A DNA stretch of 64,000 nucleotides. Origin: Patescibacteria group bacterium (lineage in GTDB: Bacteria; Patescibacteriota; Patescibacteriia; UBA9934). The notes beneath the pieces are model-generated. The model was not told the origin of the DNA. It saw only the letters and a list, made by a program, of their open reading frames with translations, and did no database searches. Of this stretch, positions 23,341 to 48,408 are shown piece after piece. The stretch lies in assembly GCA_041666205.1 (NCBI GenBank), contig JBAYHI010000002.1:64725-128724 (forward strand). The letters are read 5' to 3'. The translations under genes were made by a program, and so were the position numbers. The first letter of the stretch is position 1. Every line of letters starts with the position of its first letter.

Positions 23341-23877
23341 CTATGTTTTTCCGCGCAAAAAAAGCATGGTGAGAAGTGGGAGCGTGAACCAAATATTTGA
23401 CGCTGGCTCTTCAATAAAGAGCGTTTTCATGATGGGCGAAACCTCTAGCAAAATCATGTCAGGGAGCATGGTGCCGACCGTATATAAAAGCATGCCGGAA
23501 ATCACGATGATGAAGACGATCACTTCCCCGCCGGTCGGAACCGTATAGGGCTCGAAAAATTCATTGCGCACCTGAAACCAAAAAAACAGAAGCACGAGCA
23601 CGCCAAATAAGATAATCTTCACCCAATAATCCTCAAGGCCAACCTGTAAATCAAGATCCCGCAAAAACGGAATAAGCGTCATGCTGGCAAGCGCCAAATA
23701 AATGGAGATCATGAACGTAACGGAAAAGTCCCGACCGATCGTAAATAAAAACAAAAAAACAATCCCAATCGTTGCGGCTGCAACCCACCAATCAATGGAT
23801 TCAAGCGAGAGTTGATTCCAAATAGCCCAAATGTCCCATGTCATGCCTCCATTATACCAAACCTCCTGCAGACGCAC
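23341..23877 (-). CDS. hypothetical polytopic membrane protein
   Basis: 178 aa, 4-5 hydrophobic helices, no motif recognised. Terminator hairpin CGGGCTTCGGCCC plus T-tract at about 23311-23335. Confidence 0.4.
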   Translation of the reverse strand: MRLQEVWYNGGMTWDIWAIWNQLSLESIDWWVAAATIGIVFLFLFTIGRDFSVTFMISIYLALASMTLIPFLRDLDLQVGLEDYWVKIILFGVLVLLFFWFQVRNEFFEPYTVPTGGEVIVFIIVISGMLLYTVGTMLPDMILLEVSPIMKTLFIEEPASNIWFTLPLLTMLFLRGKT

Positions 23878-23879
23878 AG

Positions 23880-24926
23880 CTAGACCTCACGCAAATTGAG
23901 TTCTTCTAAAATTTTTCGTTCATTGCGATCCAACTTCTTTGGTGTGACGAGTTGCACAATCACAATGTGGTCGCCCCGACTTCGACCCGATGGCACGCCT
24001 TTCCCGCGCAAACGTAATTTATCGCCCGGCTGGGTGCCAGCTGGAACTTTCACCTTTACGCTCCCGTCAACAGTCTCAACCATCACATCGTCGCCAAGCG
24101 CGGCTTGTGTAAATCCGATTCGTTTTACCGAATAAATCGTGTCGCCCTGACGCTCGAAGCGTTTATCGGCTTGCACGCGCAATTGCAAATAGAGGTCGCC
24201 GTTTCCGCCAGCCGAGCCCATGCTCTCGCCTTGGCCACGCACACGAATGCGATTTCCGTCCTCAACGCCCGCCGGAATATTCACACGCAGCGTGGAGCGT
24301 TTATATTCGGTGCCCGTGCCATTGCATGTGGTGCATTTATTTTCTGGCGTTTCGCCGTTTCCGCCACACGAAGCGCAGGTTGTACGCGATTGAATATTTC
24401 CAAACATGGTGCGCTGCGTGACGATACGCATGCCCGAGCCCTTGCAGTCGTCGCACGTTTTCATTTTTGTGCCAGGCTCACCACCGGTTCCGCCACAGCG
24501 TTCACATGCTTGATTTTTTGTGAGGGACAGTTCTTTTTCAACGCCAAAAATCGATTCCTTAAACGAGAGCTCCACATCCACTAAAATATCTTGCCCGCGA
24601 TTCTGGCGCCCTCGTCCACCACCACCGCCAAACATATTCCCAAACAAATCGCCGAGATCTTCGAAATTCATGTTCGAGTAGAAATCATTGAAATTGCCAA
24701 ATCCTCCACCACCTGCTTGATCGAAGGTGGTGCCGTACTGATCGTATTGCTCGCGCTTCTTTTCGTCGCCAAGCACCTGGTAGGCTTCGTTCACTTCTTT
24801 GAATTTTTCTTCGTTTCCGCCTTTATCGGGGTGATGTTCATGGGCGAGTTTTCGAAACGCGCGCTTCACCTCTTCTTTGGTGGCGCTTTTTTCAACTCCT
24901 AAAATTTTATAATAATCTTTGCCCAT
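23880..24926 (-). CDS. dnaJ: chaperone DnaJ
   Basis: J-domain HPD (HEHHPDKG), G/F region, four CxxCxGxG zinc repeats. Confidence 0.9.
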
Positions 24927-24941
24927 ACAAAATTATTGCCT

Positions 24942-25010
24942 CGGGCGGGTCGCAGACCCGCCCCTACAGAATCGAATCATGTACGGGCAGGTCTGTGACC
25001 TGCCCTATAC
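24942..25010. repeat. hairpin-pair intergenic repeat, copy A
   Basis: CGGGCGGGTCGCAGACCCGCCC-CTACAG-...-GTACGGGCAGGTCTGTGACCTGCCCTATAC. Family members at 40579-40662, 59329-59399 and, partially, 63891-63946. Confidence 0.55.
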
Positions 25011-25014
25011 GGAA

Positions 25015-25203
25015 TTAAAACCATCCCTTCTTTTCTTCCTGCACCACCTTGGCCTGCACATCCACAATCTTGGATTTTCCTTTATTGAGCACCTTGTTCC
25101 AAAGGAAATCCCGAACCTGCGGAATGGAAAGAATCGAAAGCACGGTTGAGGCAACCCCGAGTCCCCCACGCGCCGCGAACTTGAACAAATTTCGAATTTT
25201 CAT
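25015..25203 (-). CDS. possible small protein between dnaK and dnaJ
   Basis: 62-aa ORF within the operon, basic C-terminal half; no motif. Confidence 0.25.
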   Translation of the reverse strand: MKIRNLFKFAARGGLGVASTVLSILSIPQVRDFLWNKVLNKGKSKIVDVQAKVVQEEKKGWF

Positions 25204-25204
25204 A

Positions 25205-27103
25205 TTATTTTTTCTCTTCGTCTTTCTTCACTTCCTCAAAATCCGCATCTTTCGTACCAGGTTCCGCTGGCTTTTCGTCAGCTGGTGCCTCTGCGCCCTG
25301 CGCTGGCTGTTGATACATCGAGGCGCCAATCTTTTGCGCGACTTTGGAAAGTTCTTCTGACGCCGTCTTGATGGCTGTGACGTCTTCGCCGTCTTTTACT
25401 TTCTTGAGCGCATCAAGTTTCTCTTGCACTTCTTTTGCGTCCTCTTCTTTCATTTTACTCTTGTAGTCGGTCAGCATCTTCTCCGTGGTGTAGACAAGTG
25501 TATCGGCGATGTTTCGTGTCTCGATAATTTCTTGTTTTTTCTTGTCTTCATCGGCATGCGCTTCCGCATCGTGTTTCATTTTTTCGATGTCGTCTTTGGA
25601 AAGGCCAGAGCTTGCCGTGATCGTGATCGTCTGCTCTTTATTTGTTCCTTTGTCTTTTGCCTTCACATTCAAAATTCCGTTTGCATCAATATCAAACGAC
25701 ACCTCAATTTGTGGCACGCCACGTGGCGCTGGAGGAATCCCCGTGAGCGAGAATTGCCCAAGCATCTTATTGTCCAAAGCCATTGGGCGCTCGCCCTGGA
25801 AGACTTTAATATCAACCGATGGCTGACTATCTGACGCTGTAGAAAACACCTGGCTCTTTGACGTTGGAATCGTTGTGTTGCGCTCAATGAGTTTTGTCAT
25901 GACTCCACCCATGGTTTCAATACCCAAGGAAAGTGGTGTGACGTCCAAAAGTAAAACATCTTTGACGTCGCCGGCAAGCACTCCGCCTTGAATGGCAGCA
26001 CCAACAGCCACAACTTCATCAGGATTCACGGAAATATTTGGACGCTTGCCAAAGTAATCCTCCACTTTTTTCTGCACGAGTGGCATGCGTGTCATTCCAC
26101 CCACCATCACAATTTCTTCAATGTCGCCTTTTGACATCTTTGCGTCTTCGAGTGCTTTTGCGACCGGTCCCATGGTTTTCTCAATAAGAGGAGCAACGAG
26201 TTCTTCGAGTTTTGATCGTGTCATTTTCATTACTAAATGTTTTGGCCCTTCTGCGCCCGACGTAATAAATGGCTGATTGATTTCGGTTTCTTGCGCGGTT
26301 GAGAGTTCAATCTTGGCGCGCTCAGCTGCGTCTTTGATGCGTTGCATGGCAAGCGCATCGCCCTTCAAATCAACGCCTTCGAGTTTTTTGAACTCCGAGA
26401 GAATCCAGTCGATGATGATTTTATCAAAATCATCTCCGCCAAGATGTGTGTCCCCATTTGTCGAAAGCACCTCGACCGTATTGTCGGAAACATCAAGGAC
26501 CGAAACATCGAATGTTCCGCCACCCAAATCGTAGACCAAAATTTGCTGACCTGCTTTTTTATCAAATCCGTAGGCAAGCGCTGCAGCTGTTGGCTCATTG
26601 ATGATTCGACTGACTTTCAAACCTGCAATTTCACCTGCGTCTTTTGTCGCTTGGCGTTGCGCATCGTCAAAATACGCTGGCACCGTAATCACAGCTTCGG
26701 TGACAGGCCCGCCCAAACGCTCTTCAGCATCGGCTTTCATTTTGCCCAGCACCATGGCACCAATTTCTTGTGGCGTATATTCTTTTCCACCCATCATAAT
26801 TCCAACACCCTCGCCACGCTGAACAATTTTATACGACATATTTTCACGATCGCGCTGAACTTCTGGATCGGTAAAACGTCGTCCAATCAAGCGCTTGATG
26901 GAATAAAGCGTATCAACGGGATTCGTAATGGATTGTCGCTTTGCAGGCATGCCAACCAATCGCTCGCCATTTTTTGCAATCGCAATAATGGATGGCGTGG
27001 TGCGATTCCCTTCTTTATTTTCAATGATGCGTGGTTGCCCGCCTTCAATGATGGCCATGGCTGAATTTGTTGTTCCCAAATCAATTCCTAGAATTTTAGA
27101 CAT
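25205..27103 (-). CDS. dnaK: chaperone DnaK (Hsp70)
   Basis: [16 protein letters not shown] and VGGMTRMP signatures, 632 aa. Confidence 0.95.
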
Positions 27104-27106
27104 AGA

Positions 27107-27604
27107 TTATTCATTAATGATTACTTTTGCCGGACGAATCACACGTCCTGCGATTGCGTATCCGGTTTGAACTTCCTCCAAAATTTCGTTTAATGCTTTC
27201 CCCTCCTCATGTTTTGTTCCTCCGGCCTCATGAAATTCCGGATTGAACGCTTCGCCGATTGTTTTCATGCGCTCAACTCCAATTGATGCGAGTGAATCTG
27301 CAAATTGCTTTTGGATGTAGACCACGCCCTGGAGCCAATTCTCGAGCGTCTTTTTGCTTTCGGGTGGCAGTGCATCGAGTGGGGGCGTGTGACGAACGGC
27401 TGCGTCAAAGTTGTCGATGACTGGCAGAAAACTCTGAACCAAATCGGTGACAAGATAGCGACGCGTTTCAGTTTCACGAAGAGACAACTCTTTTTTCAAA
27501 TTCTCGTAATCGGCGAGCGCGCGCTTCCAACCCGCGAGATATTCTGCGCATTGAATCTCGAGTTCAGATGATTTTGGTTTTTTATTTTTCATCGGTTTTT
27601 CCAT
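27107..27604 (-). CDS. grpE: nucleotide exchange factor GrpE
   Basis: 165 aa coiled-coil plus C-terminal GrpE fold, operon position between hrcA and dnaK. Confidence 0.85.
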   Translation of the reverse strand: MEKPMKNKKPKSSELEIQCAEYLAGWKRALADYENLKKELSLRETETRRYLVTDLVQSFLPVIDNFDAAVRHTPPLDALPPESKKTLENWLQGVVYIQKQFADSLASIGVERMKTIGEAFNPEFHEAGGTKHEEGKALNEILEEVQTGYAIAGRVIRPAKVIINE

Positions 27605-28301
27605 ATTCGTCCTCGATTAATTTGCGTGCTTCAGATAAGAGTCCAATATTGCGTTCGTAGTTCATGCGCAAGGGACCAACGAGCCCAAGCATCCCCATCA
27701 TGCCATTTGGCAATTTGTAGCGAACCATGATGGTGGCCATTTGATTGCCAAACGGATTTTCGTGTCCGATCCACACATTCATGTCACTTTGCGCTTCGGC
27801 AAATGCGTCTGTCATGACGTCGTCCATGCGATCAACCACATTTGAAAGTGATCGAAGCGTCTGTACATCTTGAAAATCTGGTTTGTCAAAAAGCTTGGAG
27901 AGTCCACTCACGTGGTGCCAGTCGCTTTGAAGTGCGGTGACTGCCGCTTCCCCCGAAAGCTCAACGAGCGCTTTGGCAATTTCGCGCATCAAATCTTTTT
28001 CGTCGGTTGTGCGATGAGCAAATGTTTTTTCGAGGCACTTATTTTCACGCTCGGTGCAATGCCCAAATCGACGATCGTGCAGGTAGAAGCGATACCCTTC
28101 TTCGGTTGGCACGCGACCTGATGAGGTATGGGGTTGACGTAGATATCCAGCCGTTTCGAGCGCCATCATATCGTTCCGAACCGTGGCTGGTGAAACGCCT
28201 AAATCGTATTTTTGCACCAAAAAACCCGAAGAAACGGGTTCCGCAGTCTCCAAATAGGCGTCAATGATTGCGCGCAAAATTGTTGCCTCTCGGTTATTCA
28301 T
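27582..28301 (-). CDS. hrcA: heat-inducible transcription repressor HrcA
   Basis: N-terminal wHTH (REATILRAIIDAYLETAEPVSSGFL), 239 aa, first gene of the hrcA-grpE-dnaK-dnaJ operon. Confidence 0.85.
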   Translation of the reverse strand: MNNREATILRAIIDAYLETAEPVSSGFLVQKYDLGVSPATVRNDMMALETAGYLRQPHTSSGRVPTEEGYRFYLHDRRFGHCTERENKCLEKTFAHRTTDEKDLMREIAKALVELSGEAAVTALQSDWHHVSGLSKLFDKPDFQDVQTLRSLSNVVDRMDDVMTDAFAEAQSDMNVWIGHENPFGNQMATIMVRYKLPNGMMGMLGLVGPLRMNYERNIGLLSEARKLIEDEYGKTDEK

Positions 28302-28303
28302 AA

Positions 28304-28332
28304 ACTAGCAGTCACAAGTATAGACTGCTAGT
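28304..28332. promoter_or_regulatory. CIRCE-like operator (ACTAGCAGTC-N9-GACTGCTAGT)
   Basis: Perfect 9/10-bp inverted repeat with 9-bp spacer immediately upstream of hrcA. Variant of consensus TTAGCACTC-N9-GAGTGCTAA. Confidence 0.55.
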
Positions 28333-28352
28333 TTCGTGCCGTCAAGAGATTC

Positions 28353-30020
28353 TTACTCAAAGAGTCGGATGAGCTCCTTTTGTTTTCGTGCAGCAACTTG
28401 CCAGCTGGCTTTTTTATCTTTTCGAAGCTTAAGCATTTCCCCAGCGTGTGCGCCACTCAAGTGGCTCGGGATAATCACGTATGCCGCACCAAGTTTATAA
28501 AGTCGTTTTGCTTCAAGCGCATTTTTTGCCGACACCACCACAGTGGCACGGGATTTGCGTGATTTCAAATAGCCCAAAATATCGGAACTCAGTGCCCCAT
28601 CGGGAATGCTCGAGACAATAAGTTGCGCATGCTCGGCATGAAGTTCACGCAAAAATTCTTCGCTTCCAATATCGCCATAGCGATATGGAATGTGACGATT
28701 GCGCAAACGTTCAATCACGGCCGGGTTAAAATCCACAACCACATATTCACGCTTGAGGGACTTCACAGCAGGGAGCATCGCTTCACCCATGGCATCGCAT
28801 CCACATAAAATGACTTCGGGCGCACGGTCGATGAGTTCTTTTTCACGGCGCTCTGTCCATCGAAATAGAAAATGCAATCGATCGTAAATTTGCTCGTTAT
28901 ACTTCATGGCATACGTGGAGAGCCCGATTGATATCATGCCGATAATGATGATGAGCGGTAAAAACGCAGAATCAATAAGTCCTGCCTCAATGCCAAGCGC
29001 TGCAAGAATAAACGAAAACTCGCTTACCTGCGCCATGGTGCTGCCGGTTAAAAATCCGGTGCGTGAATGGAACCGGAAGAGTCTCAAAATCCCCATGGTG
29101 ACAAGCGGTTTCACAAAAAGCACAAATGTCGTGAGCGATGCAATAATCATCCACGTGCTTTCGAATTTTGAAAAATCGAGTTGCGCACCAAGCACGATGA
29201 AAAAGATAATCAAGAAGAAATCTCGAAGCGGTTTGATTTTTCCGGCAATCTCGCGATGGAATTCCGATCCAGCCAAACTCAAGCCCGCAAGAAGCGCACC
29301 CATCTCGATGCTAAAGCCAATAAATTGTAATCCCGCTGCCACGGCAAAACACCAACTCAAGGCCGTGAGGAATAATAATTCCGGCGAACGTGCGGCGTAA
29401 CGGAATAAATGTGGCAATACAAATCGCGCCAAGATCCACATCACAAAAATCACCGCTACCCCTTTAATCGCTGACATTGCAAGCACTGCCCCAATCACTT
29501 GATCGCCTTGCGCAAATGCCGAAATTACCAAGAGCGCGATCATGGCGACGATGTCTTGTACGATGAGAATCCCGACTGCGATTTTTCCGTAAAGTCGATC
29601 TAGATCTTCTTTATCGCTCAAAATCTTGGCAATAATGATGGTGCTCGAAAATGAAAATGCCAAGCCTCCCAGAATGCATGTGGACAAATCAAAATCAAAT
29701 GCACGCAATAAGAAAAATCCCAAACCCGACGACAAAATAATCTGTCCGAGCCCTGCAACCGTTGCCATGGGGCCAATCTCGCGCAAATTGCGCCAATTCA
29801 AATTGAGTCCAACCAAGAAGAGCAAAAATGCAATTCCAATGTCAGAGAGTGTGCCAAATAATTCCGACGAACCGGCAATATCCAAAAGCCCCGGGCCAAT
29901 CAAGAGTCCAGTAATGAGATAGGCGATGATGAGTGGCTGACGCAACAGGTAAACCAAAAGCGACAAGAGCCCTGAGCTCATCACAACCACGGCAATTTCT
30001 ATGAAAATTGTTTCGTGCAT
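28353..30020 (-). CDS. CPA2-family K+/H+ antiporter with C-terminal RCK/TrkA-N domain
   Basis: About 11 TM helices then Rossmann-like VILCGCDAMGEA region. Confidence 0.7.
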   Translation of the reverse strand: MHETIFIEIAVVVMSSGLLSLLVYLLRQPLIIAYLITGLLIGPGLLDIAGSSELFGTLSDIGIAFLLFLVGLNLNWRNLREIGPMATVAGLGQIILSSGLGFFLLRAFDFDLSTCILGGLAFSFSSTIIIAKILSDKEDLDRLYGKIAVGILIVQDIVAMIALLVISAFAQGDQVIGAVLAMSAIKGVAVIFVMWILARFVLPHLFRYAARSPELLFLTALSWCFAVAAGLQFIGFSIEMGALLAGLSLAGSEFHREIAGKIKPLRDFFLIIFFIVLGAQLDFSKFESTWMIIASLTTFVLFVKPLVTMGILRLFRFHSRTGFLTGSTMAQVSEFSFILAALGIEAGLIDSAFLPLIIIIGMISIGLSTYAMKYNEQIYDRLHFLFRWTERREKELIDRAPEVILCGCDAMGEAMLPAVKSLKREYVVVDFNPAVIERLRNRHIPYRYGDIGSEEFLRELHAEHAQLIVSSIPDGALSSDILGYLKSRKSRATVVVSAKNALEAKRLYKLGAAYVIIPSHLSGAHAGEMLKLRKDKKASWQVAARKQKELIRLFE

Positions 30021-30109
30021 AGCCTCCTATTCGGATTGATATGATTATAACACGAACACACGCTCGTCAAAACGGATAAGGTCACGTATCATACACAGGA
30101 ACAATATCT

Positions 30110-30523
30110 ATGAAAAACAATCCATCAGAAGGCGATCCTGACAGCACGCGGAATAGAGAATTCGAATCACTCAAGCCTCGCATTGAGCACTGGTTTAGTA
30201 TGAATTATCATTACGATTCCGCGCTCGTGAAACACTGGATTACTTCATTTGAAAATTCGCTAAAAAAACATAAACTCCCAAGCAATATAAAAATCGATTT
30301 TGGAGAAACGCGATTTTATTGCATGGCCTCGAGTAAAGCAGAATTTCCGGTCTATCAATTCAAACCCATTCTCAACCGAGCACTACGTGGAAAAGCCCCC
30401 TATCATGATTGGGAGGTCATTGGTCTCATGACTGCGGACGAATGTGATGACGATGTGCCTGATGCAGTTATCAATGTACTCAAAAATATTCAAGCGCAAA
30501 CACAAGAGCCGAAGGGGAAATAA
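30110..30523 (+). CDS. hypothetical protein
   Basis: 137-aa ORF, no motif; terminator hairpin follows. Confidence 0.4.
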   Translation: MKNNPSEGDPDSTRNREFESLKPRIEHWFSMNYHYDSALVKHWITSFENSLKKHKLPSNIKIDFGETRFYCMASSKAEFPVYQFKPILNRALRGKAPYHDWEVIGLMTADECDDDVPDAVINVLKNIQAQTQEPKGK

Positions 30524-30544
30524 ATCACGGTTTTTTCCCACAAT

Positions 30545-30574
30545 AAAACCACAATCTTCTATGACTGTGGTTTT
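30545..30574 (+). terminator. intrinsic terminator
   Basis: AAAACCACA-ATCTTCTATGAC-TGTGGTTTT hairpin with T-tract. Confidence 0.5.
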
Positions 30575-30576
30575 AT

Positions 30577-30651
30577 TGGTGACCCCACCGGGAATCGAAC
30601 CCGAATTTCCAGGATGAGAACCTGATGTCCTAACCGTTAGACGATGGGGCC
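30577..30651 (-). tRNA. tRNA-Glu (anticodon CTC)
   Basis: Hand-folded cloverleaf: acceptor GGCCCCA/TGGGGTC, anticodon loop TTCTCAT, T-loop GGGTTCGATTCCC, CCA encoded. Promoter TTGACA-N17-TATTGT at 30665-30693. Confidence 0.8.
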
Positions 30652-30764
30652 AAAATGTGGGTAGACAATACGAGTTTTTCGCGGTTTTGTCAATATCAAA
30701 TAGTTGACACCGCCTGCTTTTTGAACTATCTTTTCCGGTCGAACTATAGCATTTTGGAGGAAAC

Positions 30765-31214
30765 ATGCGTTCGAAGACCCGCCGTATTCTGGTTGCCGCA
30801 CTTTCCGTCAGCGCCCTTGCCCTTATCGTCATCACGTCGGTCATGGTGCTCTCGAGCACCGATCGCGTATCTACGAGCGAAGAGGAATTCTTCGATGCCG
30901 CGGACGTGTGCACGATCGCAAATACGTGCAGGTTCGCGGTAAGCCCCGGTCTCCCGGTTGTAGTGATCGAGATTCCCGATGTCCGCGATAGCACAGTCAA
31001 ATGGCATCAGGTGCTCGTGGACATGGAATCGTGGTCTCAAGTGGTCAGCAAAGGTCGTCGTCTGGAGTGCACGAGCGAGCAGCCGTGCAAACTGACAACG
31101 ATCCGCACACGCTTCTCAGGTATCTTCATGAAGCGCTACATCGAGATCGCCGGTCACGGCGGAGAAATCATCATTTTCCGCCAGCACTACAATGGACTTC
31201 TCGCTACCCCCTAA
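30765..31214 (+). CDS. hypothetical secreted/membrane-anchored protein on GC-rich insert
   Basis: 149 aa, N-terminal signal/anchor (RRILVAALSVSALALIVITSVMVL). GGAGG SD site; promoter TTGACA-N17-TATCTT at 30704-30731. Confidence 0.45.
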   Translation: MRSKTRRILVAALSVSALALIVITSVMVLSSTDRVSTSEEEFFDAADVCTIANTCRFAVSPGLPVVVIEIPDVRDSTVKWHQVLVDMESWSQVVSKGRRLECTSEQPCKLTTIRTRFSGIFMKRYIEIAGHGGEIIIFRQHYNGLLATP

Positions 31215-31322
31215 CTTCCCCGCCCTGCACGAGAACCCTTCTCGTCAGAGCGGGGTTCTTGTTTTAAACGCAGAAGCGCCGCCGGCTGAGAGGCCGGACG
31301 GCGCGCGACGAGGACGTGCGAA

Positions 31323-31610
31323 CTAGTAGACAATCGAGAGTTCGCCCGTGTCGAGGTGGAAGGTGCCAACATAGTGCACCCAATCGTCTTTCTGGACCGC
31401 GATGCGACCCCGCACACGCAGAATCCGCTTATCGGTCGTCTCACGGGAGCCAGAACACTCGCAGACCTCCACGGCGTAGACGCGAGCCAACGTGCCCTCC
31501 GCACGATCCGTGAGAAGTGGCGAGAACGCGCCCCCGATCCCGTAGCTCTTGAGAGCGTACGTAACTTCTTCCTCGCTGATGATCCGGGCAGAATACAGTA
31601 CCTGCGGCAT
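31323..31610 (-). CDS. hypothetical protein on GC-rich insert
   Basis: 95 aa from MPQVLYS; AGGAGG SD site 6 nt upstream; no motif. Convergent with the previous gene across GC hairpins. Confidence 0.4.
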   Translation of the reverse strand: MPQVLYSARIISEEEVTYALKSYGIGGAFSPLLTDRAEGTLARVYAVEVCECSGSRETTDKRILRVRGRIAVQKDDWVHYVGTFHLDTGELSIVY

Positions 31611-31748
31611 ATGTTCCTCCTGGAAACGCGCAAATCTTAGCAAACCATGACGAATCCGTCACGTCGGAAATAAAAAATTGACCTTCGCGCAATGACACGA
31701 TATTCTGAAGATATGTCCTTTCCCACGTGAGCAAATGCTCATAAGGAG

Positions 31749-32030
31749 GTGTGCGTGAACTCGATGCCGGGTTTGTCTATTGGGCGAGCACGAGAGCTCG
31801 CGCTGCAGACGGGAGCCTCCCCACGTGAGGCCATCGGCCAGAGCGCGACCCTTCTGCGCAAAGACGGCACGACCGTCAAGGGCAAGGTCGTCCGCGTGGA
31901 TGTTCCCGATCCCGATCGGATCATCATCCACGTCATCGACGACAAAGATGTGTATCACCTGGCTGTCTTCCGAACGGATTGGCAGCCGATCGACGAATCT
32001 CTCTTGGAGGTCATCGACCTTGGATCCTGA
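31749..32030 (+). CDS. hypothetical protein on GC-rich insert
   Basis: 88-93 aa (GTG or ATG start after an AGGAGG SD site); divergent from the previous gene; no motif. Confidence 0.4.
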   Translation: MCVNSMPGLSIGRARELALQTGASPREAIGQSATLLRKDGTTVKGKVVRVDVPDPDRIIIHVIDDKDVYHLAVFRTDWQPIDESLLEVIDLGS

Positions 32031-32098
32031 TCCAGCACACCAACCCGTCACCTCGCTCGGGGCGCTTCTCTCCTCGAAGTACCCCACCCCTTTCAAAT

Positions 32099-32139
32099 AA
32101 AAGCACCCCGCCGATTGTGGCGGAGCGCTTTTGTTTTTT
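32099..32139. terminator. bidirectional terminator, copy 1 of a duplicated element
   Basis: AAAAGCACCCCGCCGATTGTGGCGGAGCGCTTTTGTTTTTT; near-identical copy at 36187-36236. Confidence 0.55.
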
Positions 32140-32536
32140 ATTCAAATTGAATCGAAAAATTATACATCCCCATCCCACATGTAGCCTGAAGTGTTGATCC
32201 TGCAGGCTGCGGGGGAATCTCAATTTCTGTATTTCCGGAGGCGGGCAGGTTCGCTGCGTATTCTATACCGGGGATCACAAGCGATGAAGAACAATCATAG
32301 GTCCCTGCTGTCTGGACGCGAAGGATGGTTGGAACCTCGGCTTGTGCAACTGTTGTACGTGGCAGATACCCCCCTTTTGCGGCAATCTCAATCCACTGTA
32401 CGCCATCTATCATCGAAACATTTTCTTCCGGTGCAACCTTCACGACTGCGGTGCGTTGAGATAAAAAAACAAGCCCTCCCAGGAAAACAATACAGGCAAC
32501 TGTTGAAAAAACCATCGTCGTTGTTTTCATATCCAT
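32138..32536 (-). CDS. secreted protein in the copper-resistance operon (possible metal-binding)
   Basis: 132 aa, signal peptide, Cys and Met-rich C-terminal region; last gene of the cop cassette. Confidence 0.4.
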   Translation of the reverse strand: MDMKTTTMVFSTVACIVFLGGLVFLSQRTAVVKVAPEENVSMIDGVQWIEIAAKGGYLPRTTVAQAEVPTILRVQTAGTYDCSSSLVIPGIEYAANLPASGNTEIEIPPQPAGSTLQATCGMGMYNFSIQFE

Positions 32537-32539
32537 CCA

Positions 32540-33565
32540 TCAAAAATTAAAAATAGGCTCTATCCATCCAATCGCCACAAAACTATTTAGAATATTCAAT
32601 AAGCCAAATAAAATCACCACAAGTCCTGCACTCTTATAAAACACGCCTGATCGTTTCCCACTGCCAATACTCAGAGAGCTAAAACTCATGAGCGCGAGCA
32701 CGGGGAATGTGCCAAGCGCAAATACAAGCATCGTGGTAGCTCCGGCAAAAAAATCCCCAGTTGAAAGAGTGAATAGTTGCATGGATTGTGTGAACCCACA
32801 TGGCAGAAAAAATGTGGCGATTCCTGCCAGGAGTGGCGTGAGTGTGTGATTGAGCTTCGTTATTCGCTCCGCGCGTTCCGAAAGAAATTTTGGCATGGCT
32901 GGTTGTAGCTGTTTCACCCATGGAAAGACATCGAGTAAATTCACCCCAAGCACGAGCATCACACACCCGACCAAAATCCCGATGAGCATCGTGCCAACAA
33001 CGTTTAACTGAAATGCCGAGCCCAACACACCAATAAGACCCCCGAGAAGAAAAAACGACCCAAGACGGCCAAGATGAAACAGCAATTGTGGGCGTATCCG
33101 ATCGCCTCCTTTTGCAAATGACGCGGAAAGGGAGAGCACAAGCCCCCCAACCACGGCCATACACGTCGATAAAGACGCGATCATCCCAATCACGAATGCG
33201 GTTGAGAGCGATGCACGGCCCTCTCCAACTAAATGAACCAATCCAAGCTGTTGCATCAAAATATAAAGAAATAGAAATCCAATAACGATAGGAATGGCAA
33301 TCACGAATTCATCCCATTGGATGCGATGGGTATTCCCCACAGAAAGACGATACCCGCGATCTGCAATCAGGGTTGTTAGATCCTTGGCGATCTCTGCATC
33401 AGATGCATGCTCAAATGCTCCCTCGATTTCAACGGTCTGTCGTTTAAGATTTGTTATTGCTTGATGAACCCGAGGATCTGCTCGTAATGCTTGTTGCGTG
33501 AATTGCACACACGAAGCGCAATGGAGCCCCTGAATATGAAACCGATGATGAGTTGTTGATTGCAT
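32540..33565 (-). CDS. heavy-metal-associated domain fused to a TauE/CcdA-like permease
   Basis: N-terminal HMA motif GLHCASC followed by about 8 TM helices; start at MQSTTHHRF. Confidence 0.55.
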   Translation of the reverse strand: MQSTTHHRFHIQGLHCASCVQFTQQALRADPRVHQAITNLKRQTVEIEGAFEHASDAEIAKDLTTLIADRGYRLSVGNTHRIQWDEFVIAIPIVIGFLFLYILMQQLGLVHLVGEGRASLSTAFVIGMIASLSTCMAVVGGLVLSLSASFAKGGDRIRPQLLFHLGRLGSFFLLGGLIGVLGSAFQLNVVGTMLIGILVGCVMLVLGVNLLDVFPWVKQLQPAMPKFLSERAERITKLNHTLTPLLAGIATFFLPCGFTQSMQLFTLSTGDFFAGATTMLVFALGTFPVLALMSFSSLSIGSGKRSGVFYKSAGLVVILFGLLNILNSFVAIGWIEPIFNF

Positions 33566-33566
33566 A

Positions 33567-35843
33567 TTAAAGTTTTTTTGTCTGTAAACGCAGAGAATTT
33601 GCAACAACCGAAACGCTCGAGAATGCCATGGCTATGCCGGCAAATACCGGGCTTAGCAGCCAACCAAATAAGGGGAAAAAGAGACCGCCAGCAAGCGGGA
33701 TGCCCACGAGATTATAGAAGAAGGCCCAAAATAAATTTTGTTTTATTCCGCGCATGGTGAGATTTGACAAATGAATCGCTTTCACAAGCTTTGAAATGTC
33801 TCCCTGCAACAACGTGATCCCGGCCGATTCCATGGCAATATCTGTTCCGGTGCCCATTGCAATCCCAACATCTGCTTGCGCAAGAGCCGGGGCGTCATTC
33901 ATTCCATCCCCGACCATCGCAACGATCTCGCCATCTTTTTGTAGTGCAGAAATCTTTGCAAGCTTATCGCCTGGCAGAGCATGTGCAATCACCTCTTCAA
34001 CCCCAACCTGATTGGCAATAAACCGCGCCGTACGTTCGTCGTCCCCGGTGAGCATCACTGTGCGAATCCCAAGACGATGCAGTGTCGTAATGGCACCTTT
34101 TGCTTCGGGTCGTACCGCATCTGCAACCATCACATACCCGAGCATCTGCGTTGTGGTGGCCAAAAAAACCGGTGTCCGCCCCTTTGCTGTTTCCTCCTCA
34201 ATTTGTTCTATCGGAATCTCCAACCCATATTCCTGCATGAGCATTGCATTGCCAACAAGATAATCTACGCCACCAATCACACCCAGAATCCCCTTACCTT
34301 TCACCACCTCGAATTTTTCTGGAGGCACAACATTCCATACGCGTTGCTTTACATACGCAACGATTGCCGAGGCGATGGGGTGTTCAGATCGTGACTCCAA
34401 ACTCGCAAGCAAGGTCATAAATTGTTCCTCTTGCATGACAGACGCAGGATGTACTAAAACAACTTCTGGCATGCCCTTTGTCACCGTACCGGTTTTATCA
34501 AGCACAATCGTGGTCACCTGATGTAGTGTTTGGAGCGTAGCTGCATCTTTTATAAGAATCCCCTCCCGCGCACCTTTGCCAACACCCACAATAATCGCCG
34601 TTGGGGTTGCGAGTCCCAAGGCACACGGGCAAGCAATAATGAGGATACCAACAAATGAGGTGAGCCCAAATGAAAGGGCATGCCCAAAGCCCAATGAGGC
34701 AATGCCGATTGTAAGCCACAATCCAAGCGAGACAAACGCAAGCCCTAATACAATCGGAACAAATACGCGAGAGATTTTGTCTGCCAATGCTTGAATGGGT
34801 GCTTTGCTGGATTGCGCGGTTTCTACCATCTTAATAATCTGGAAAAGAAGCGTTTCGCTCCCAATATGCGTGGCTGTGAATGTTACGGTTCCGGTTGTAT
34901 TGAGTGTTCCCGCAACAACGCGATCGCCAGCCTGTTTTTCCACTGGAATCGGTTCCCCGGTAATCATGGATTCATCCACAAACGTGGATCCATCCGCGAT
35001 CACTCCGTCAACTGCAATCCGTGACGCGGGCTTCACAATCAGCAAATCCCCAACGCGAATATCCTCAATCGGAACCTCGACTTCGATTCCTTGACGCAAA
35101 ACAAGCGCCTGCTTTGCCTGCAAATTCAATAATTTTTCAATTGCCGCGCCTGTCTTCACTTTTGAACGCGATTCTAAATATTTCCCAAGCGTAATGAATG
35201 CAATCACCACAATCACCACATCAAAATAGGTCTGTGAGACATCGATATAAGCCCCTAGTGCGCCGGGAAATACCATGACCACGACGCTATAAAGAAACGC
35301 TGCAAGCGTTCCCATACCGATGAGCGTATCCATATCTGCCTTCCCATATCGCAAAAACCGATAGATGCCCTTCAGATACGGAATCCCCACAAAAAATAAC
35401 GCAATGAGGGCTGAAAAAAATAGAGCCCCGAGCAATCCTTGATTCACAAATTCTGGAACGATCTGCACCGACCATATGCGCTCGATGGCGTCCAGGATCA
35501 TCATGCCACCACTGAAAATTGCCAGCGGAATCATCAGATAAACCTTACCCCGAAGCACACGAATCTCCTTGAGTTTGCGTTCCTTTGATTCACCAACCCC
35601 TGTATGCAAGGCGTGGTCCATCCCCGACGACATAGGGTGCAATGTGTACCCGAGTGGGTTAAGCGCCCGGTTAAACAGTTCAACATTTGTGGATACATCA
35701 GCGGATACAACCTCAACGGTTTCTGTTCCGAAATTTGTTTGTGCAGACACCACTCCATGGATTTTTTTTAGTGCATCCTCAATCGTAGCCCCACACGAGG
35801 CGCAATGCATGCCACTTACATGAAATGAGGCCCGTATTTGCAT
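33567..35843 (-). CDS. copA: copper-translocating P1B-type ATPase
   Basis: N-terminal HMA (GMHCASCG), TM CPC motif, DKTGT phosphorylation site, GDGMNDAPAL hinge, 758 aa. Confidence 0.9.
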   Translation of the reverse strand: MQIRASFHVSGMHCASCGATIEDALKKIHGVVSAQTNFGTETVEVVSADVSTNVELFNRALNPLGYTLHPMSSGMDHALHTGVGESKERKLKEIRVLRGKVYLMIPLAIFSGGMMILDAIERIWSVQIVPEFVNQGLLGALFFSALIALFFVGIPYLKGIYRFLRYGKADMDTLIGMGTLAAFLYSVVVMVFPGALGAYIDVSQTYFDVVIVVIAFITLGKYLESRSKVKTGAAIEKLLNLQAKQALVLRQGIEVEVPIEDIRVGDLLIVKPASRIAVDGVIADGSTFVDESMITGEPIPVEKQAGDRVVAGTLNTTGTVTFTATHIGSETLLFQIIKMVETAQSSKAPIQALADKISRVFVPIVLGLAFVSLGLWLTIGIASLGFGHALSFGLTSFVGILIIACPCALGLATPTAIIVGVGKGAREGILIKDAATLQTLHQVTTIVLDKTGTVTKGMPEVVLVHPASVMQEEQFMTLLASLESRSEHPIASAIVAYVKQRVWNVVPPEKFEVVKGKGILGVIGGVDYLVGNAMLMQEYGLEIPIEQIEEETAKGRTPVFLATTTQMLGYVMVADAVRPEAKGAITTLHRLGIRTVMLTGDDERTARFIANQVGVEEVIAHALPGDKLAKISALQKDGEIVAMVGDGMNDAPALAQADVGIAMGTGTDIAMESAGITLLQGDISKLVKAIHLSNLTMRGIKQNLFWAFFYNLVGIPLAGGLFFPLFGWLLSPVFAGIAMAFSSVSVVANSLRLQTKKL

Positions 35844-35844
35844 A

Positions 35845-36111
35845 TTAATTTGAAAGATTATAAATCTTCAAAAGCTCATCCACGGCTTTCTGTTTATTTT
35901 CTTTTAATTGATGTGCCACACATGTATTTAGGTGACCAGCAAGCAATTCACGCTTTGCACACTTCAAAAGTCCAATCACGCTATCGACCTGTTGAATGAC
36001 CTCCGGACAATATTGATCATTTTCAATCATCGCGCTGATTTTTTGCATGGTCCCCTGCGCCTGCTTTACGGAAAGATGGGCTTTTTGCTTATTTGGAGTG
36101 ATCGGCATCAT
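35845..36111 (-). CDS. csoR: CsoR/RcnR-family metal-sensing repressor
   Basis: 88-aa all-helical protein with a Cys...His...Cys pattern (CPEV...H...C) typical of DUF156/CsoR, placed upstream of copA. Confidence 0.65.
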   Translation of the reverse strand: MMPITPNKQKAHLSVKQAQGTMQKISAMIENDQYCPEVIQQVDSVIGLLKCAKRELLAGHLNTCVAHQLKENKQKAVDELLKIYNLSN

Positions 36112-36186
36112 AAAAAAGAGATAGTATAACCTACCCCCTAGGGTATAGGGTGAACCTCAATCTTGCAAGCCCCGTTGTGGATATAA

Positions 36187-36236
36187 AAAAGCACCCTGCC
36201 GATTGTGGCGGGGCGCTTTTGTTTTTACTTGAAAAA
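36187..36236. terminator. bidirectional terminator, copy 2 (overlaps uppP stop)
   Basis: AAAAGCACCCTGCCGATTGTGGCGGGGCGCTTTTGTTTTT, 2 mismatches versus the copy at 32099. Confidence 0.55.
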
Positions 36237-37028
36237 TGTCAGCACGAGAATCAGACCTCCGAGCGCAATGCGATACCAGGCAAACCACTTGAAACTATAC
36301 TTCTCGATAAATTTAAAAAGGAATCGAATTGCAACCATTCCCGATGCTGCTGCGGCAATAAACCCAACAATGAGGAGTGGCCACGGAGTCATGAATCCAT
36401 TTTGAATCACGTCGACCGTTGCAAATGTACTTGCGGCAAGAATTGCTGGAATCGAAAGAAGGAATGAAAACTTTGCCACAGTATTGCGCCCGAGCCCCAT
36501 AAATAATCCCGCGGTCATGGTAATCCCCGATCGCGACGTGCCCGGCAATAGCGAAAGCGCTTGCGCAAATCCCATCACCATCGCCTGTTTCCACGTGGTG
36601 TGCTCCAAGCCATGTGTGAGTGTTCCCATGCGTGCATGGAACCAATCTGCGATCCACAAAACAATCCCCCAAAAAATCAAATTCGCCGCTACAATATCGA
36701 GCGTACGAATCGCATCCAAATAGGAGTCTGAAATCACAAGGCCCAAAATCATCACCGGAATGGTGGCGCCAAATAATTTCATCGCAAGCTTTGTTTCATC
36801 GGTCATCTTGCGTTTCATGAGTCCAACGGCAATCCCCCGAATTTCCGGCCACAACGAATAGACCACTGCGGTGAGCGTTGCTAAATGCACCATGACGTCA
36901 AAATCATACCCTTGCTCTTTCCACCCAAAAAACTCCGGAAAAATAATGAGATGCCCAGAACTAGAAATTGGCAAGAATTCTGTAATTCCTTGTACGAGCC
37001 CTAACACAACGGCTTGAAAAACATTCAT
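36225..37028 (-). CDS. uppP: undecaprenyl-diphosphate phosphatase
   Basis: BacA signatures EFLPISSSGH and PGTSRSG, 267 aa. Confidence 0.85.
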   Translation of the reverse strand: MNVFQAVVLGLVQGITEFLPISSSGHLIIFPEFFGWKEQGYDFDVMVHLATLTAVVYSLWPEIRGIAVGLMKRKMTDETKLAMKLFGATIPVMILGLVISDSYLDAIRTLDIVAANLIFWGIVLWIADWFHARMGTLTHGLEHTTWKQAMVMGFAQALSLLPGTSRSGITMTAGLFMGLGRNTVAKFSFLLSIPAILAASTFATVDVIQNGFMTPWPLLIVGFIAAAASGMVAIRFLFKFIEKYSFKWFAWYRIALGGLILVLTFFK

Positions 37029-37031
37029 ACA

Positions 37032-38921
37032 TTACGAGTTGAATTGCACAATTTCCCCTGGCTTTGGAGATCCTGCTGCGTGATCACTCCCCGGCGTTTG
37101 AGACGTGGGCGCGCTACTTGTTGGCGTCTTCTTTTTATGACGACGTCGACGCTTACTGCGCTCGGGCGCTTGCGGAGGCACAGTTCCCATTGGCGCTTTT
37201 ATCGGCACCGAAATAGGTACTGCAGGTGCAACCTCCCGCGCCATCTGCGCAGGCTTTTCCATCGCCGGTCGCGCAACAGGAGCGGGTTTTGCACGCTCCG
37301 TTAATTCCGAAAGTGAGGCGCTGCTTGATTCTTCTTTTGTAATAAGTTCCCCATCCATGATTTTTGGAACTTCTGTGATCACCTTCTTTTCTGGTCGAAA
37401 CGGAGCCGGAGATTTCTTTCCTTTTTCACGCTCCTCTTTAATAAGCGGCATGCACTCTTCACAATAAATCGGGCGCGAACGATCGAGCTCTACTGGAATC
37501 GCAAAGGTTTTTCCGCAACGCGTGCAGGTATATTCCTGGCTATATTTTGCTTTCTTCGCCGCTTCTTTTTTATCTTTCACCTCTTTATATTTTTCGTCCA
37601 AATCCACGCCCTCACCAAATCCACTCCAGGTCGCCACATGTTCTTCAATGGACGCGCGATTTCCCGCGTAGCGTTCACGAGATTGCGCCACGACCCGTTC
37701 TTGACTTCCTGTTTTTTGCGCAATCGGTGGAAGGGTGAGCGCGGAAAATGGCGCAGAGGTGACGCCGTCAATCATGAGCTTCAAATAAATTTGGAATTTC
37801 GGCAAATTGATTAAATCCTCCGGCAAAAACCGCGGGGTAAATTCATCCTCCATAAATGTGGCGTCTGGCGAACCAACGCGGAATGTAATGATCGTACCCA
37901 CGTTTCCAAATACGGCATCGCGCACCGACGTATTCCCGCCGTAATCGAGTTGAGAAATATACTGGTGCGCCATGATGAGGTTCAGGCGATATTTACGTGC
38001 TTCAGAAAGAATTGACGCAAAGGATTCAACCGCAAAGTTTTGAAATTCATCAACGTAGAGATAAAAATCTTGACGCTCACTTTCAGGCATATCCACACGC
38101 TCCATGGCAGCCATGGAAAGCTTGGTAACAATCATCCCTCCGAGCAAACGCATGGCATCTTCTCCAATACGTCCTTTTGCCAAATTCACAATAAGAATTT
38201 TCTGATCATCCATGATGCTGCGCAAATCGAGCGTGGATTTTGCTTGCGCCACAATATTTCGCATGACCGAGGAAGAAAGGAATTGTCCAACTTTATTTTG
38301 AATAGGCGCCACGGCCTCGGACGCAAACTTGCTTTCGTATGATGCAAATTCCGTCACCCAGAATTGTTTGACGATCGGATCTTTCACGTTTGCAATAATT
38401 TCTTTTCGATACGCGGCGTCCGATAGCATGCGGTTAATCCCCAAGAGTGTGGTATTGGGCGTATCCATGAGCGCCAAAATCGTATTATTGAGAATATATT
38501 CCATGCGTGCGCTCCACACATTTTCCCAGATTTTCTTGAATACACTCATCATGCCCGCAGCCACCAAATGCTTCTGATCGGGTCGAACTGCTTCCAAAAT
38601 ATTGAATCCAATTGGATACTCAAAATCCGCCGGGTTAAAATACACCACGTCGTTTATGCGCCACGACGGAATATAGTCGAGGAGTTTCTCTGCGGTATCG
38701 CCGTGCGGGTCAATATAGCAGGCGCCGTGGCCAGCATAGATGTCAGAGAGAATCATGTTCTCAAGGAGTGTAGTTTTCCCCATGCCGGTTTTTCCAATCA
38801 CATAGACGTGCCGGCGACGATCATCGGTTTTAATGCCAAATTTATGCATCTGATTGCGAAAATTCGTTTTCGCAAAATAGATGATGTCTTTTTCGTGATC
38901 GTGGGGATAGCGCATTGGCAT
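37032..38921 (-). CDS. TraD/TrwB-type coupling-protein-like ATPase (629 aa) with C-terminal zinc ribbon and low-complexity tail
   Basis: Walker A HVYVIGKTGMGKT, CYIDPHGD, Walker B LYVDEFQNF, AHQYISQL. CxxC...CxxC near the C-terminus. Paralog of the ATPase half of 18407..20932. Confidence 0.6.
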   Translation of the reverse strand: MPMRYPHDHEKDIIYFAKTNFRNQMHKFGIKTDDRRRHVYVIGKTGMGKTTLLENMILSDIYAGHGACYIDPHGDTAEKLLDYIPSWRINDVVYFNPADFEYPIGFNILEAVRPDQKHLVAAGMMSVFKKIWENVWSARMEYILNNTILALMDTPNTTLLGINRMLSDAAYRKEIIANVKDPIVKQFWVTEFASYESKFASEAVAPIQNKVGQFLSSSVMRNIVAQAKSTLDLRSIMDDQKILIVNLAKGRIGEDAMRLLGGMIVTKLSMAAMERVDMPESERQDFYLYVDEFQNFAVESFASILSEARKYRLNLIMAHQYISQLDYGGNTSVRDAVFGNVGTIITFRVGSPDATFMEDEFTPRFLPEDLINLPKFQIYLKLMIDGVTSAPFSALTLPPIAQKTGSQERVVAQSRERYAGNRASIEEHVATWSGFGEGVDLDEKYKEVKDKKEAAKKAKYSQEYTCTRCGKTFAIPVELDRSRPIYCEECMPLIKEEREKGKKSPAPFRPEKKVITEVPKIMDGELITKEESSSASLSELTERAKPAPVARPAMEKPAQMAREVAPAVPISVPIKAPMGTVPPQAPERSKRRRRHKKKTPTSSAPTSQTPGSDHAAGSPKPGEIVQFNS

Positions 38922-48401: not shown

Positions 48402-48408
48402 AAAAAGT

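Follow-up and report, generated by a model that had tools for sequence, protein, structure and literature searches.

A GC-rich islet of three orphan genes beside tRNA-Glu in a Patescibacteria chromosome

Results

Three small genes lie between tRNA-Glu and a copper operon

The locus lies in a chromosome from an uncultured member of the Patescibacteria (CPR) and was analysed within a 64-kb stretch of DNA, hereafter the window. Three small genes, P1 (149 aa), P2 (95 aa) and P3 (91 aa), adjoin the 5' end of a tRNA-Glu gene, just as a sequence-only reading of the locus had reported, and the neighbours of this islet are housekeeping or copper genes. On the left, hrcA, an exchanger gene, the h137 gene and a terminator hairpin are syntenic with L003, which, together with L021, is the nearest relative in two collections as judged by the flanking exchanger protein (64% and 55% identity, respectively). 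On the right, the cupredoxin-like gene at 32138-32536 (minus strand) is the last gene of a copper operon, and the copper cassette beyond the islet encodes the cupredoxin-like protein, a DsbD_2/HMA protein, CopA and a CsoR-type repressor. The features of the locus are listed below.

30541-30578, unstranded: hairpin of a bidirectional terminator, lying between h137 and the 3' end of the tRNA (inverted repeat I4; blastn to L003)
30577-30651, minus strand: tRNA-Glu, anticodon CTC (ARAGORN; Rfam tRNA, 58 bits)
30665-30693, minus strand: predicted tRNA-Glu promoter, TTGACA-17-TATTGT, 10/12 (promoter scan)
30704-30732, plus strand: predicted P1 promoter, TTGACA-17-TATCTT, 10/12 (promoter scan)
30765-31214, plus strand: P1, 149 aa (ORF list)
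31218-31265, plus strand: predicted P1 terminator, a hairpin with a U-rich tail behind it (fold -25.4 kcal/mol, z = -5.2; terminator scan)
31276-31304, minus strand: putative P2 terminator, a hairpin past the stop codon whose U-tail is weak (fold -27.7 kcal/mol, z = -3.3)
31323-31610, minus strand: P2, 95 aa (ORF list)
31634-31662, minus strand: putative P2 promoter, GTGACG-17-TAAGAT, 8/12 (read off the sequence by eye; unflagged by the promoter scan)
31648-31661, unstranded: palindrome 1, TGACGAATCCGTCA, overlapping the -35 box and spacer of the putative P2 promoter
31678-31706, plus strand: predicted P3 promoter, TTGACC-17-TATTCT, 9/12 (promoter scan)
31728-31741, unstranded: palindrome 2, TGAGCAAATGCTCA, in the P3 5' UTR just ahead of the Shine-Dalgarno site
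31755-32030, plus strand: P3, 91 aa, GTG start (ORF list)
32095-32136, unstranded: predicted bidirectional terminator common to P3 (plus strand) and the cupredoxin-like gene (minus strand) (folds with U-runs)

The tRNA-Glu gene belongs to the native context and is oriented with its 5' end towards the islet. The hairpin at its 3' end is native as well, being about 90% conserved in L003, where it occurs in two copies, and present as a single copy in the window. Rfam over the stretch returned the tRNA only; a match to PtaRNA1 (E = 0.25) was set aside as noise. The tRNA-Glu promoter sits within host-like AT-rich DNA (39% GC) reaching from 30652 to about 30764, and in the promoter scan it stands back-to-back with the promoter of P1.

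Each of the three genes has its own predicted promoter, a strong Shine-Dalgarno (SD) site and a terminator hairpin, so each could be expressed on its own. The near-consensus promoters proposed earlier for all three genes were recovered for P1 and P3, but the P2 candidate reaches only 8/12 and escaped the scan. The strong SD sites were confirmed throughout (3/3, GGAGG-type, 4-6 nt from the start codon): GGAGG stands 4-6 nt ahead of the P1 ATG, AGGAGG 5 nt ahead of the P2 ATG, and AAGGAGG 5 nt ahead of the GTG at 31755, which is most likely the start of P3 in preference to the ATG at 31764 (91 versus 88 aa). Stable hairpins directly follow every stop codon (z = -3.3 to -5.2), and the terminator shared by P3 and the cupredoxin-like gene folds on both strands (-20.6 kcal/mol and z = -4.5 on the plus strand, -24.5 kcal/mol and z = -6.7 on the minus strand) with a U-run after each fold. 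P1, P2 and P3 are thus predicted to be three independent monocistrons, with P2 and P3 diverging from a shared control region of 144 nt (31611-31754) and forming no operon.

Composition and translation signals mark the islet as foreign

A two-change-point fit delimited a GC-rich block at 30775-32129 (57.7% GC versus 45.8%, log-likelihood ratio 28), a shift that lies well outside chance, with each boundary uncertain by about 40 nt. The sequence-only reading had described the whole interval from 30652 as GC-rich, which holds over this block but not for its first ~100 nt, which are host-like. GC at third codon positions (GC3) is 0.69-0.74 in the islet genes (P1 GC1/2/3 = 0.55/0.45/0.69; P2 GC3 0.74; P3 GC3 0.72) versus 0.40-0.52 in 19 host ORFs, and the pattern GC1 > GC2 < GC3 is present in the proposed frames of P1-P3. 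Moreover, the tetranucleotide correlation of the islet to the genome is 0.51, about 6.5 sd off the value of background windows (0.835 +/- 0.05).

The signals of translation initiation differ in the same way. GGAGG stands 4-6 nt ahead of the start codon in all three islet genes and in all three genes of a second islet described below, whereas among the host genes shown only 1-2 of the 12 validated by Pfam have an SD site; a TATAAT-like box lies about 7-14 nt before the ATG in 7 of the 18 host starts listed. Because the 1.4-kb islet departs from the host in base composition, in GC by codon position, in tetranucleotide signature and in its signals of translation initiation, it is, on these sequence signatures, foreign DNA, in agreement with the earlier proposal of a foreign insert. 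The GC of the copper genes is host-like, and the cassette does not belong to the insert.

The second islet, 12 kb away at 44.0-46.0 kb of the window, is GC-rich with the same composition and the same SD usage, and likewise holds three orphan genes. The tetranucleotide correlation between the two islets is 0.61, while that between the first islet and any background window is at most 0.58. The two are alike in composition, SD usage and orphan content, so that they probably came from the same kind of donor.

P1, P2 and P3 are orphans in the databases searched

We searched P1, P2 and P3 against Pfam, PHROGs, PADLOC and NCBIfam, and none gave a match above noise; sub-threshold matches to Argos, DrmE_C, LIC_13076 and phrog_18206 were discarded as such. 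A word-indexed search of 5.8 billion protein clusters returned the query proteins alone, and a full phmmer scan of 1.84 billion representatives with the P1 ectodomain yielded no credible homologue, its one match at E = 3.7e-4 being a low-complexity Ser/Gly/Ala repeat protein that was rejected as noise. The islet had no match in phages (blastn, tblastn) or plasmids (blastn), and P1-P3 had no accepted homologue in IMG/VR. Matches of P2 in IMG/VR were rejected, since they comprise a 26-residue patch, picked out by the seed pattern, in a 665-aa phage protein, which we take to be portal-like from its N-terminal sequence. Sequence searches of the PDB stayed at E >= 0.1 throughout for P1-P3. Foldseek of the P2 and P3 models against the PDB and BFVD gave nothing under E = 0.02 (best for P3, E = 0.024); no assignment was based on its matches, which were to small beta barrels of a generic type (Sm-like, YaeO, Tudor) and to small phage proteins that are uncharacterised. 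Matches of P2 to the RnlA fold (E >= 0.18, on a model with pLDDT 55) were likewise rejected. By sequence, P1, P2 and P3 are therefore orphans in the databases searched, and since these searches returned no relatives, they add three singleton families to the protein dark matter. No paralogues of the islet proteins were found within the window, and the candidate paralogy of P2 with P3 was rejected (p = 0.35).

The N-terminus of P1 has a basic stretch (MRSKTRR) followed by a 22-residue hydrophobic segment, and the protein contains four Cys. P1 is predicted to be an N-in signal-anchor membrane protein with an extracytoplasmic domain of ~115 aa carrying two C-x5-C motifs; an internal duplication of two C-x5-C ... 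IEI units was considered and rejected (p = 0.17). P2 is acidic (pI 5.6), and its fold is predicted to be all-beta from a single-sequence AF2 model with pLDDT 55. P3 is also acidic (pI 5.2), and its single-sequence AF2 model (pLDDT 65.5, core 70-85) shows two short N-terminal helices and a small beta core of five strands. Judged from these models, P2 and P3 would be small acidic beta-rich cytoplasmic proteins. With low confidence, P1 may be a surface protein, and all three may be strain-specific accessory genes.

Position of the islet on the 5' side of tRNA-Glu

The position beside a tRNA gene raised the view that the locus is an integrative hot spot. Like tRNA-linked integrative elements, the islet adjoins a tRNA gene, has foreign composition and orphan cargo, and has relatives in which the same tRNA bears integrase traces. 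In L021, the C-terminal fragment of a Phage_integrase protein (tyrosine integrase, E = 1.5e-10) abuts the 3' end of tRNA-Glu(CTC). In L003, a 21-nt tRNA-Glu fragment reaching from the T-loop to CCA stands without an intact tRNA, the terminator hairpins are duplicated, there is an exact direct repeat of 43 nt, and the position of the islet is taken by an XRE regulator and an orphan protein of 1373 aa. Both of these distant relatives (<= 64% exchanger identity) lack P1-P3, and their loci are otherwise rearranged. No relative found carries the three genes and none of the proteins matches any protein family, so neither of the findings that had been named in advance as speaking against an insert was made.

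These traces would fit an islet left over from an integrative element that targeted tRNA-Glu, either a prophage or an integrative island, whose integrase and att repeats were lost later. However, they lie at the 3' side of the tRNA in L021 and L003, whereas the islet is found at its 5' (promoter) side, and the 3' side of the tRNA here is native and syntenic with L003. Known tRNA-targeting integrases put the element 3' of the reconstituted tRNA. Moreover, no stretch of tRNA-Glu of at least 14 nt is repeated elsewhere in the window, the L021 integrase fragment has no match in the window (tblastn), no direct or inverted repeats were found flanking the islet, and the islet holds no integrase gene (P1-P3 being without Pfam, PHROG or NCBIfam match). 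In addition, no tRNA gene lies close to the twin islet at 44-46 kb (ARAGORN). The lack of an integrase and of an att duplication of the tRNA 3' end, together with a location on the wrong (5') side of that gene, indicates that this is not a classical tRNA-integrated element, and we regard descent from such an element as unlikely. Support for the hot-spot view is indirect and comes from the two relatives. The islets also differ from integron gene cassettes: a regex scan covering the two strands of each islet revealed no attC core pair (RYYYAAC ... GTTRRRY, 35-130 nt spacing), and the islet genes have their own predicted promoters and mixed orientation.

P2 and P3 as a possible two-gene unit

P2 and P3 are adjacent, small and share a control region with palindromes, and they had been likened to a regulator/effector or toxin-antitoxin unit. 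The palindrome pointed out earlier in the intergenic region is present as palindrome 1, whose sequence given above is the reverse complement of the string in that reading, but singly it is no more than chance would give: shuffling the intergenic region yields a 14-mer palindrome as good as this in 16% of cases and one with 5-bp arms in 53%. Palindromes 1 and 2 have the same TGA-N8-TCA form and lie 80 nt apart; a pair of such 14-mers turns up in 1.4% of shuffles and 2.5% of real windows of 144 nt, so that the two near-palindromes are mildly unusual. P2 and P3 may, with low confidence, be co-regulated via these two sites; no DNA-binding domain was recognised in either protein.

A toxin-antitoxin, addiction or regulator-effector module of which one member binds the palindromes would be compatible with the islet, and the paired sites at the P2 -35 box and spacer and in the P3 leader, as well as the two short helices preceding the beta core in the P3 model, would suit it. 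Type II toxin-antitoxin modules likewise have two small neighbouring genes and palindromes in the control region. Unlike these modules, P2 and P3 are divergent monocistrons with a terminator each rather than a co-transcribed pair, and both are acidic, so that there is no basic partner. Furthermore, Pfam, PADLOC and NCBIfam searched at E <= 1 gave noise only, and neither protein has a significant fold match, RnlA included. We consider such a module very unlikely, and the earlier likeness is not borne out.

Reality of the genes and of the assembly

It is highly improbable that P1-P3 are not genes, that is, that the block is non-coding foreign DNA or a decaying fragment whose long ORFs arise from the few stops of GC-rich DNA. 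Several overlapping ORFs of 88-145 aa do occur in other frames or on the other strand of the block, one gene caller (ENA) chose an antisense 87-aa ORF without an SD site in place of P1, and homologues for a test of selection are lacking. The assemblies (ENA, JGI, Logan) show no polymorphism, which precludes a selection test from that side as well. However, only the frames of P1-P3 unite GC3 of ~0.7, low GC2, GGAGG at 4-6 nt, a promoter-like site and a post-stop hairpin, whereas the alternative frames show high GC2 or no SD site. In addition, the N-terminus of P1 is canonical in its basic-hydrophobic order, and the core of P3 is modelled at pLDDT 70-85 without an alignment.

That the block is an assembly chimera or a contaminant fragment can scarcely be credited, despite the abrupt compositional switch and the separate 1.46-kb contig that the islet forms in the Logan assembly, because an ENA contig of 252 kb and a JGI contig of 4.9 kb cross both junctions at 100% identity, the Logan contigs share 27 and 30 nt with those flanking them and are thus graph neighbours, and the terminator at the right boundary serves genes on both sides. 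The Logan islet contig has an exact 30-nt (k-1) overlap with the right-flank contig at 32060-32089, and the conservation of the tRNA is a trivial explanation for the break on the left. The break on the right is an indirect hint from the assembly graph that the islet may be strain-variable.

Discussion

The anatomy of the locus, the foreign composition of the islet and the orphan status of its genes are direct observations, and the reading that probably accounts for them is an ordinary horizontally acquired islet of orphan genes, ~1.37 kb in size (about 30760-32130), in a Patescibacteria chromosome. No donor or homologue of the islet was found in the databases searched. From these observations we infer its acquisition route, expression and any function as follows. 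The donor would have had higher GC and used SD sites, and the DNA would have come to occupy a neutral gap between the tRNA-Glu promoter and the terminator of the copper-resistance operon, with a cargo of three independent monocistronic accessory genes. Fixation would most likely have occurred by recombination that was not site-specific, such as might follow DNA uptake, or the islet may be the last remnant of a larger element that decayed. An integrase acting on the tRNA was probably not the placing agent.

Genomic islets and small islands of orphan genes have been catalogued in bacteria generally and in Patescibacteria (PMC12455944). The present islet resembles them in its atypical GC, codon usage and tetranucleotides, in a homologue-less cargo of no known function, in its place in an intergenic gap by a tRNA and in its absence from the available relatives. 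Unlike those catalogued (PMC12455944), it is tiny, with three genes in 1.4 kb, lacks both a mobility gene and flanking repeats, and lies on the 5' side of the tRNA. Phage morons also come as self-contained units of promoter, SD site, ORF and terminator, as predicted here, and have deviant composition. In contrast to morons, the islet is not inside a prophage, has no phage genes nearby and matches nothing in PHROGs, phage genomes or IMG/VR.

A bolder reading would take both GC-rich, SD-led orphan triplets as the cargo of an unrecognised integrase-free gene capture, for example of DNA from the host cell of the episymbiont or by a CPR-specific element. P2 and P3, together with the paired TGA-N8-TCA operators, would then be a new autoregulated pair of addiction or defence type that keeps the islet in the population, beside a strain-specific surface protein, P1. 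We give this only an outside chance and prefer the ordinary horizontally acquired islet.

The finding is mainly bookkeeping and has no bearing on a long-standing open question. Under the preferred reading of an ordinary acquired islet, it indicates that tiny and recent foreign islets in a streamlined CPR genome are recognisable by GC together with translation signals. Should the islet be strain-variable, P1 would be a candidate strain-specific surface determinant. Moreover, the contrast between islet genes with SD sites and host genes that mostly lack them, several of the latter having a TATAAT-like box near the start codon, is a cheap and transferable marker for foreign genes in such lineages.

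Gene organization of islet 1

The window belongs to a MAG of an uncultured Patescibacteria (CPR) bacterium, and the same DNA was found, identical, in a 252-kb ENA contig, two JGI contigs and Logan contigs. P1, P2 and P3, three small genes beside tRNA-Glu, lie in a GC-rich block, islet 1, surrounded by core chromosome. The left neighbourhood comprises hrcA-grpE-dnaK-dnaJ, a Na+/H+ exchanger gene, h137 (a lineage-specific gene for a 137-aa protein) and tRNA-Glu, and the right one a copper cassette followed by genes for UppP, a VirD4-like coupling protein and SecDF. In NCBI, P1 and P2 are WCT24_01340 and WCT24_01345, both hypothetical proteins of the "Patescibacteria group bacterium" MAG.

Features of the locus and of islet 2, a second GC-rich block
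30577-30651, minus strand: tRNA-Glu(CTC), 5' end toward islet 1
30765-31214, plus strand: P1, 149 aa, SD GGAGG
31323-31610, minus strand: P2, 95 aa, SD AGGAGG, acidic (pI 5.6)
31728-31741: palindrome TGAGCAAATGCTCA in the P3 leader, of the same TGA-N8-TCA form as that at 31648-31661
31755-32030, plus strand: P3, 91 aa, SD AAGGAGG 5 nt before GTG, acidic (pI 5.2)
32138-36111, minus strand: copper cassette, host-like GC
32138-32536, minus strand: small, membrane-anchored cupredoxin-like protein (Pfam E = 4.5e-5, under the gathering score)
32540-33607 (or a 341-aa call), minus strand: DsbD_2 membrane protein with N-terminal HMA domain
33567-35843, minus strand: CopA P-type ATPase
35845-36111, minus strand: CsoR-type repressor
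44017-46054: islet 2, three plus-strand ORFs among minus-strand host genes, GC 57.3%

The ORFs and SD sites described in the sequence-only reading were confirmed. A near-consensus promoter had also been assigned to each gene, which held for P1 and P3 (10/12 and 9/12 in the promoter scan) but not for P2, whose promoter-like site, read by eye from the sequence, scored only 8/12. An alternative P3 start at ATG 31764 is less likely than GTG 31755 because of its 14-nt distance to the SD. Stable hairpins follow all three stop codons (P1, -25.4 kcal/mol, z = -5.2; P2, -27.7 kcal/mol, z = -3.3; P3, -20.6 kcal/mol, z = -4.5), and the P3 hairpin doubles as the terminator of the cupredoxin-like gene that runs toward it (-24.5 kcal/mol, z = -6.7). 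Together with the promoter-like sites, these hairpins point to three predicted monocistronic units.

A two-boundary likelihood fit placed the GC-rich block at 30775-32129, with 57.7% GC inside vs 45.8% outside (log-likelihood ratio 28; boundaries good to ~40 nt). The initial ~100 nt of the interval first proposed as GC-rich are AT-rich (39% GC) and contain the near-consensus promoter of tRNA-Glu, back-to-back with that of P1. Islet 1 occupies a neutral gap between the tRNA promoter and the operon terminator.

P1, P2 and P3 as orphans and probable coding genes

All three proposed frames showed GC1 > GC2 < GC3, with GC3 of 0.69-0.74, and rival ORFs in other frames had high GC2 or were mirror-image shadows without an SD. 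P1 is called by the NCBI, JGI and Logan annotations; the ENA gene caller annotates in its place an antisense 87-aa ORF (30744-31007, minus strand), which lacks an SD and whose codon-position GC is less typical of a gene. P1 has a basic N-terminus, a hydrophobic segment of 22 residues and four Cys forming two C-x5-C motifs. The P3 core (residues 30-73) was predicted from the single sequence with pLDDT 70-85, and P2 was modelled, at low confidence, as all-beta.

No relative of any of the three proteins was found among 5.8 billion protein clusters, in Pfam, PHROGs, PADLOC and NCBIfam, among PDB sequences, in phage genomes or plasmids, or in IMG/VR. Patch matches of P2 in IMG/VR were rejected as seed artefacts, and a full phmmer scan of the P1 ectodomain against 1.84 billion representatives returned a single low-complexity match, rejected as noise. 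Fold searches with the predicted P2 and P3 models gave no significant match; at E >= 0.024, the P3 core resembled small beta barrels of a generic kind and a large number of uncharacterised small phage proteins, and was not assignable.

Foreign composition and a second islet

The earlier suggestion of a foreign insert is supported by GC3, tetranucleotide profile and translation signals. GC3 is only 0.40-0.52 in the window's host ORFs, and the strand-symmetrised tetranucleotide profile of islet 1 correlated with the rest of the window at r = 0.51, compared with 0.835 +/- 0.05 (minimum 0.70) for size-matched windows. Two 2-kb stretches of low GC also occur in the window, at 48001-50000 and 52001-54000 (41-42% vs a 47-48% background).

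GGAGG lies 4-6 nt from the start in all three islet 1 genes, whereas an SD is present in only 1-2 of 12 Pfam-validated host genes, and the SD-led genes of the window are concentrated in islets 1 and 2. The listed host starts include 22842, 40517, 44010, 35843 and 36111, all on the minus strand. A TATAAT-like hexamer stands ~7-14 nt before the ATG in 7 of the 18 listed host starts, suggesting leaderless or very short-leader mRNAs.

The islet 2 ORFs (150, 144 and 171 aa; n = 3) are likewise orphans; their GC3 is 0.67-0.74, they run counter to the adjacent genes, and they have no match in Pfam, NCBIfam or IMG/VR. GGAGG precedes each of their starts (44149, 44750 and 45393) by 4 nt, and the same starts were picked by Logan's gene caller. 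In tetranucleotide profile, islet 2 correlated with the genome at r = 0.52, and the two islets with each other at r = 0.61, above the value of islet 1 against any host window, which suggests a similar donor.

Origin and function of islet 1

Insertion at an integrative tRNA hot spot had been proposed for islet 1. The tRNA-Glu neighbourhood is indeed unstable in this lineage. In L021 (Ga0114933_10054289), a distant relative with 55% exchanger identity, positions 1-370 carry tRNA-Glu(CTC) in reversed orientation relative to the exchanger gene, and the C-terminal part of a tyrosine recombinase (PF00589, E = 1.5e-10) stops ~13 nt away from the 3' end of the tRNA; this stretch is a classical tRNA-integrated element, truncated where the contig stops. 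In L003 (64% exchanger identity), the site (JBAZUI010000001.1, 4900-5900) has no intact tRNA and retains a 21-nt tRNA-Glu 3' fragment from T-loop to CCA (5155-5180), two copies of the terminator hairpin (98% identical, 441 nt apart) and an 88-aa membrane-protein gene flanked by a perfect 43-nt direct repeat. Further on come an XRE regulator and an orphan protein of 1373 aa that has no Pfam domains. The site looks like one of repeated insertion and decay. The integrase trace in L021 and the rearrangement in L003 make a hot spot at the 3' side of tRNA-Glu plausible in these relatives.

However, this hot spot does not explain islet 1, which shares a deviant composition with tRNA-integrated elements but not their integrase, tRNA-derived repeats or position. 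An element inserted by an integrase ends up 3' of the tRNA, whereas islet 1 lies on the 5' side, and the 3' side is native, with exchanger, h137 and terminator hairpin syntenic with L003, the closest relative. Moreover, there is no integrase within or beside islet 1, the L021 integrase fragment has no match anywhere in the 64 kb, no flanking repeats were found, and no tRNA-Glu stretch of at least 14 nt is repeated anywhere in the window. Since islet 2 adjoins none of the window's three tRNAs, islet 1 may be next to tRNA-Glu by coincidence.

The reading of P2/P3 as a toxin-antitoxin or regulator unit is not supported, as the two genes are divergent and separately terminated, and their products are both acidic and match no family or fold. 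The palindrome originally noted (31648-31661) overlaps the -35 element and spacer of the weak putative P2 promoter, and a 14-mer of its quality was seen in 16% of shuffles. Two TGA-N8-TCA sites turned up together in 1.4% of the shuffled sequences and in 2.5% of genuine 144-nt windows, a pairing that is mildly suggestive, and no more, of a shared operator.

Possible strain variability and implications

In the Logan assembly (SRR6484324) the islet has a contig to itself (30627-32089), between one covering 22090-30653 and another covering 32060-38067, with overlaps of 27 nt (30627-30653) and exactly 30 nt (32060-32089) at the islet 1 ends. The left break, inside the conserved tRNA 5' half, is trivially explained. 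The right overlap equals k-1 if Logan used k = 31, as we assume; the break would then be the signature of a graph branch between 32059 and 32060, ~30 nt past the P3 stop codon. Such a branch makes possible a co-occurring strain that has the right flank in common but is different to the left of position 32060. No contig ends delimit islet 2, which this assembly crosses without a break.

These data indicate that islet 1 is a small, recent acquisition made up of three orphan accessory genes, and that islet 2, at a distance of 12 kb, is its twin. There is ample documentation of genomic islands that carry novel gene pools, also in Patescibacteria (PMC12455944). Islet 1 is a further case of this already documented type; only the contrast between SD-led and SD-less genes and a possible variation between strains merit follow-up.
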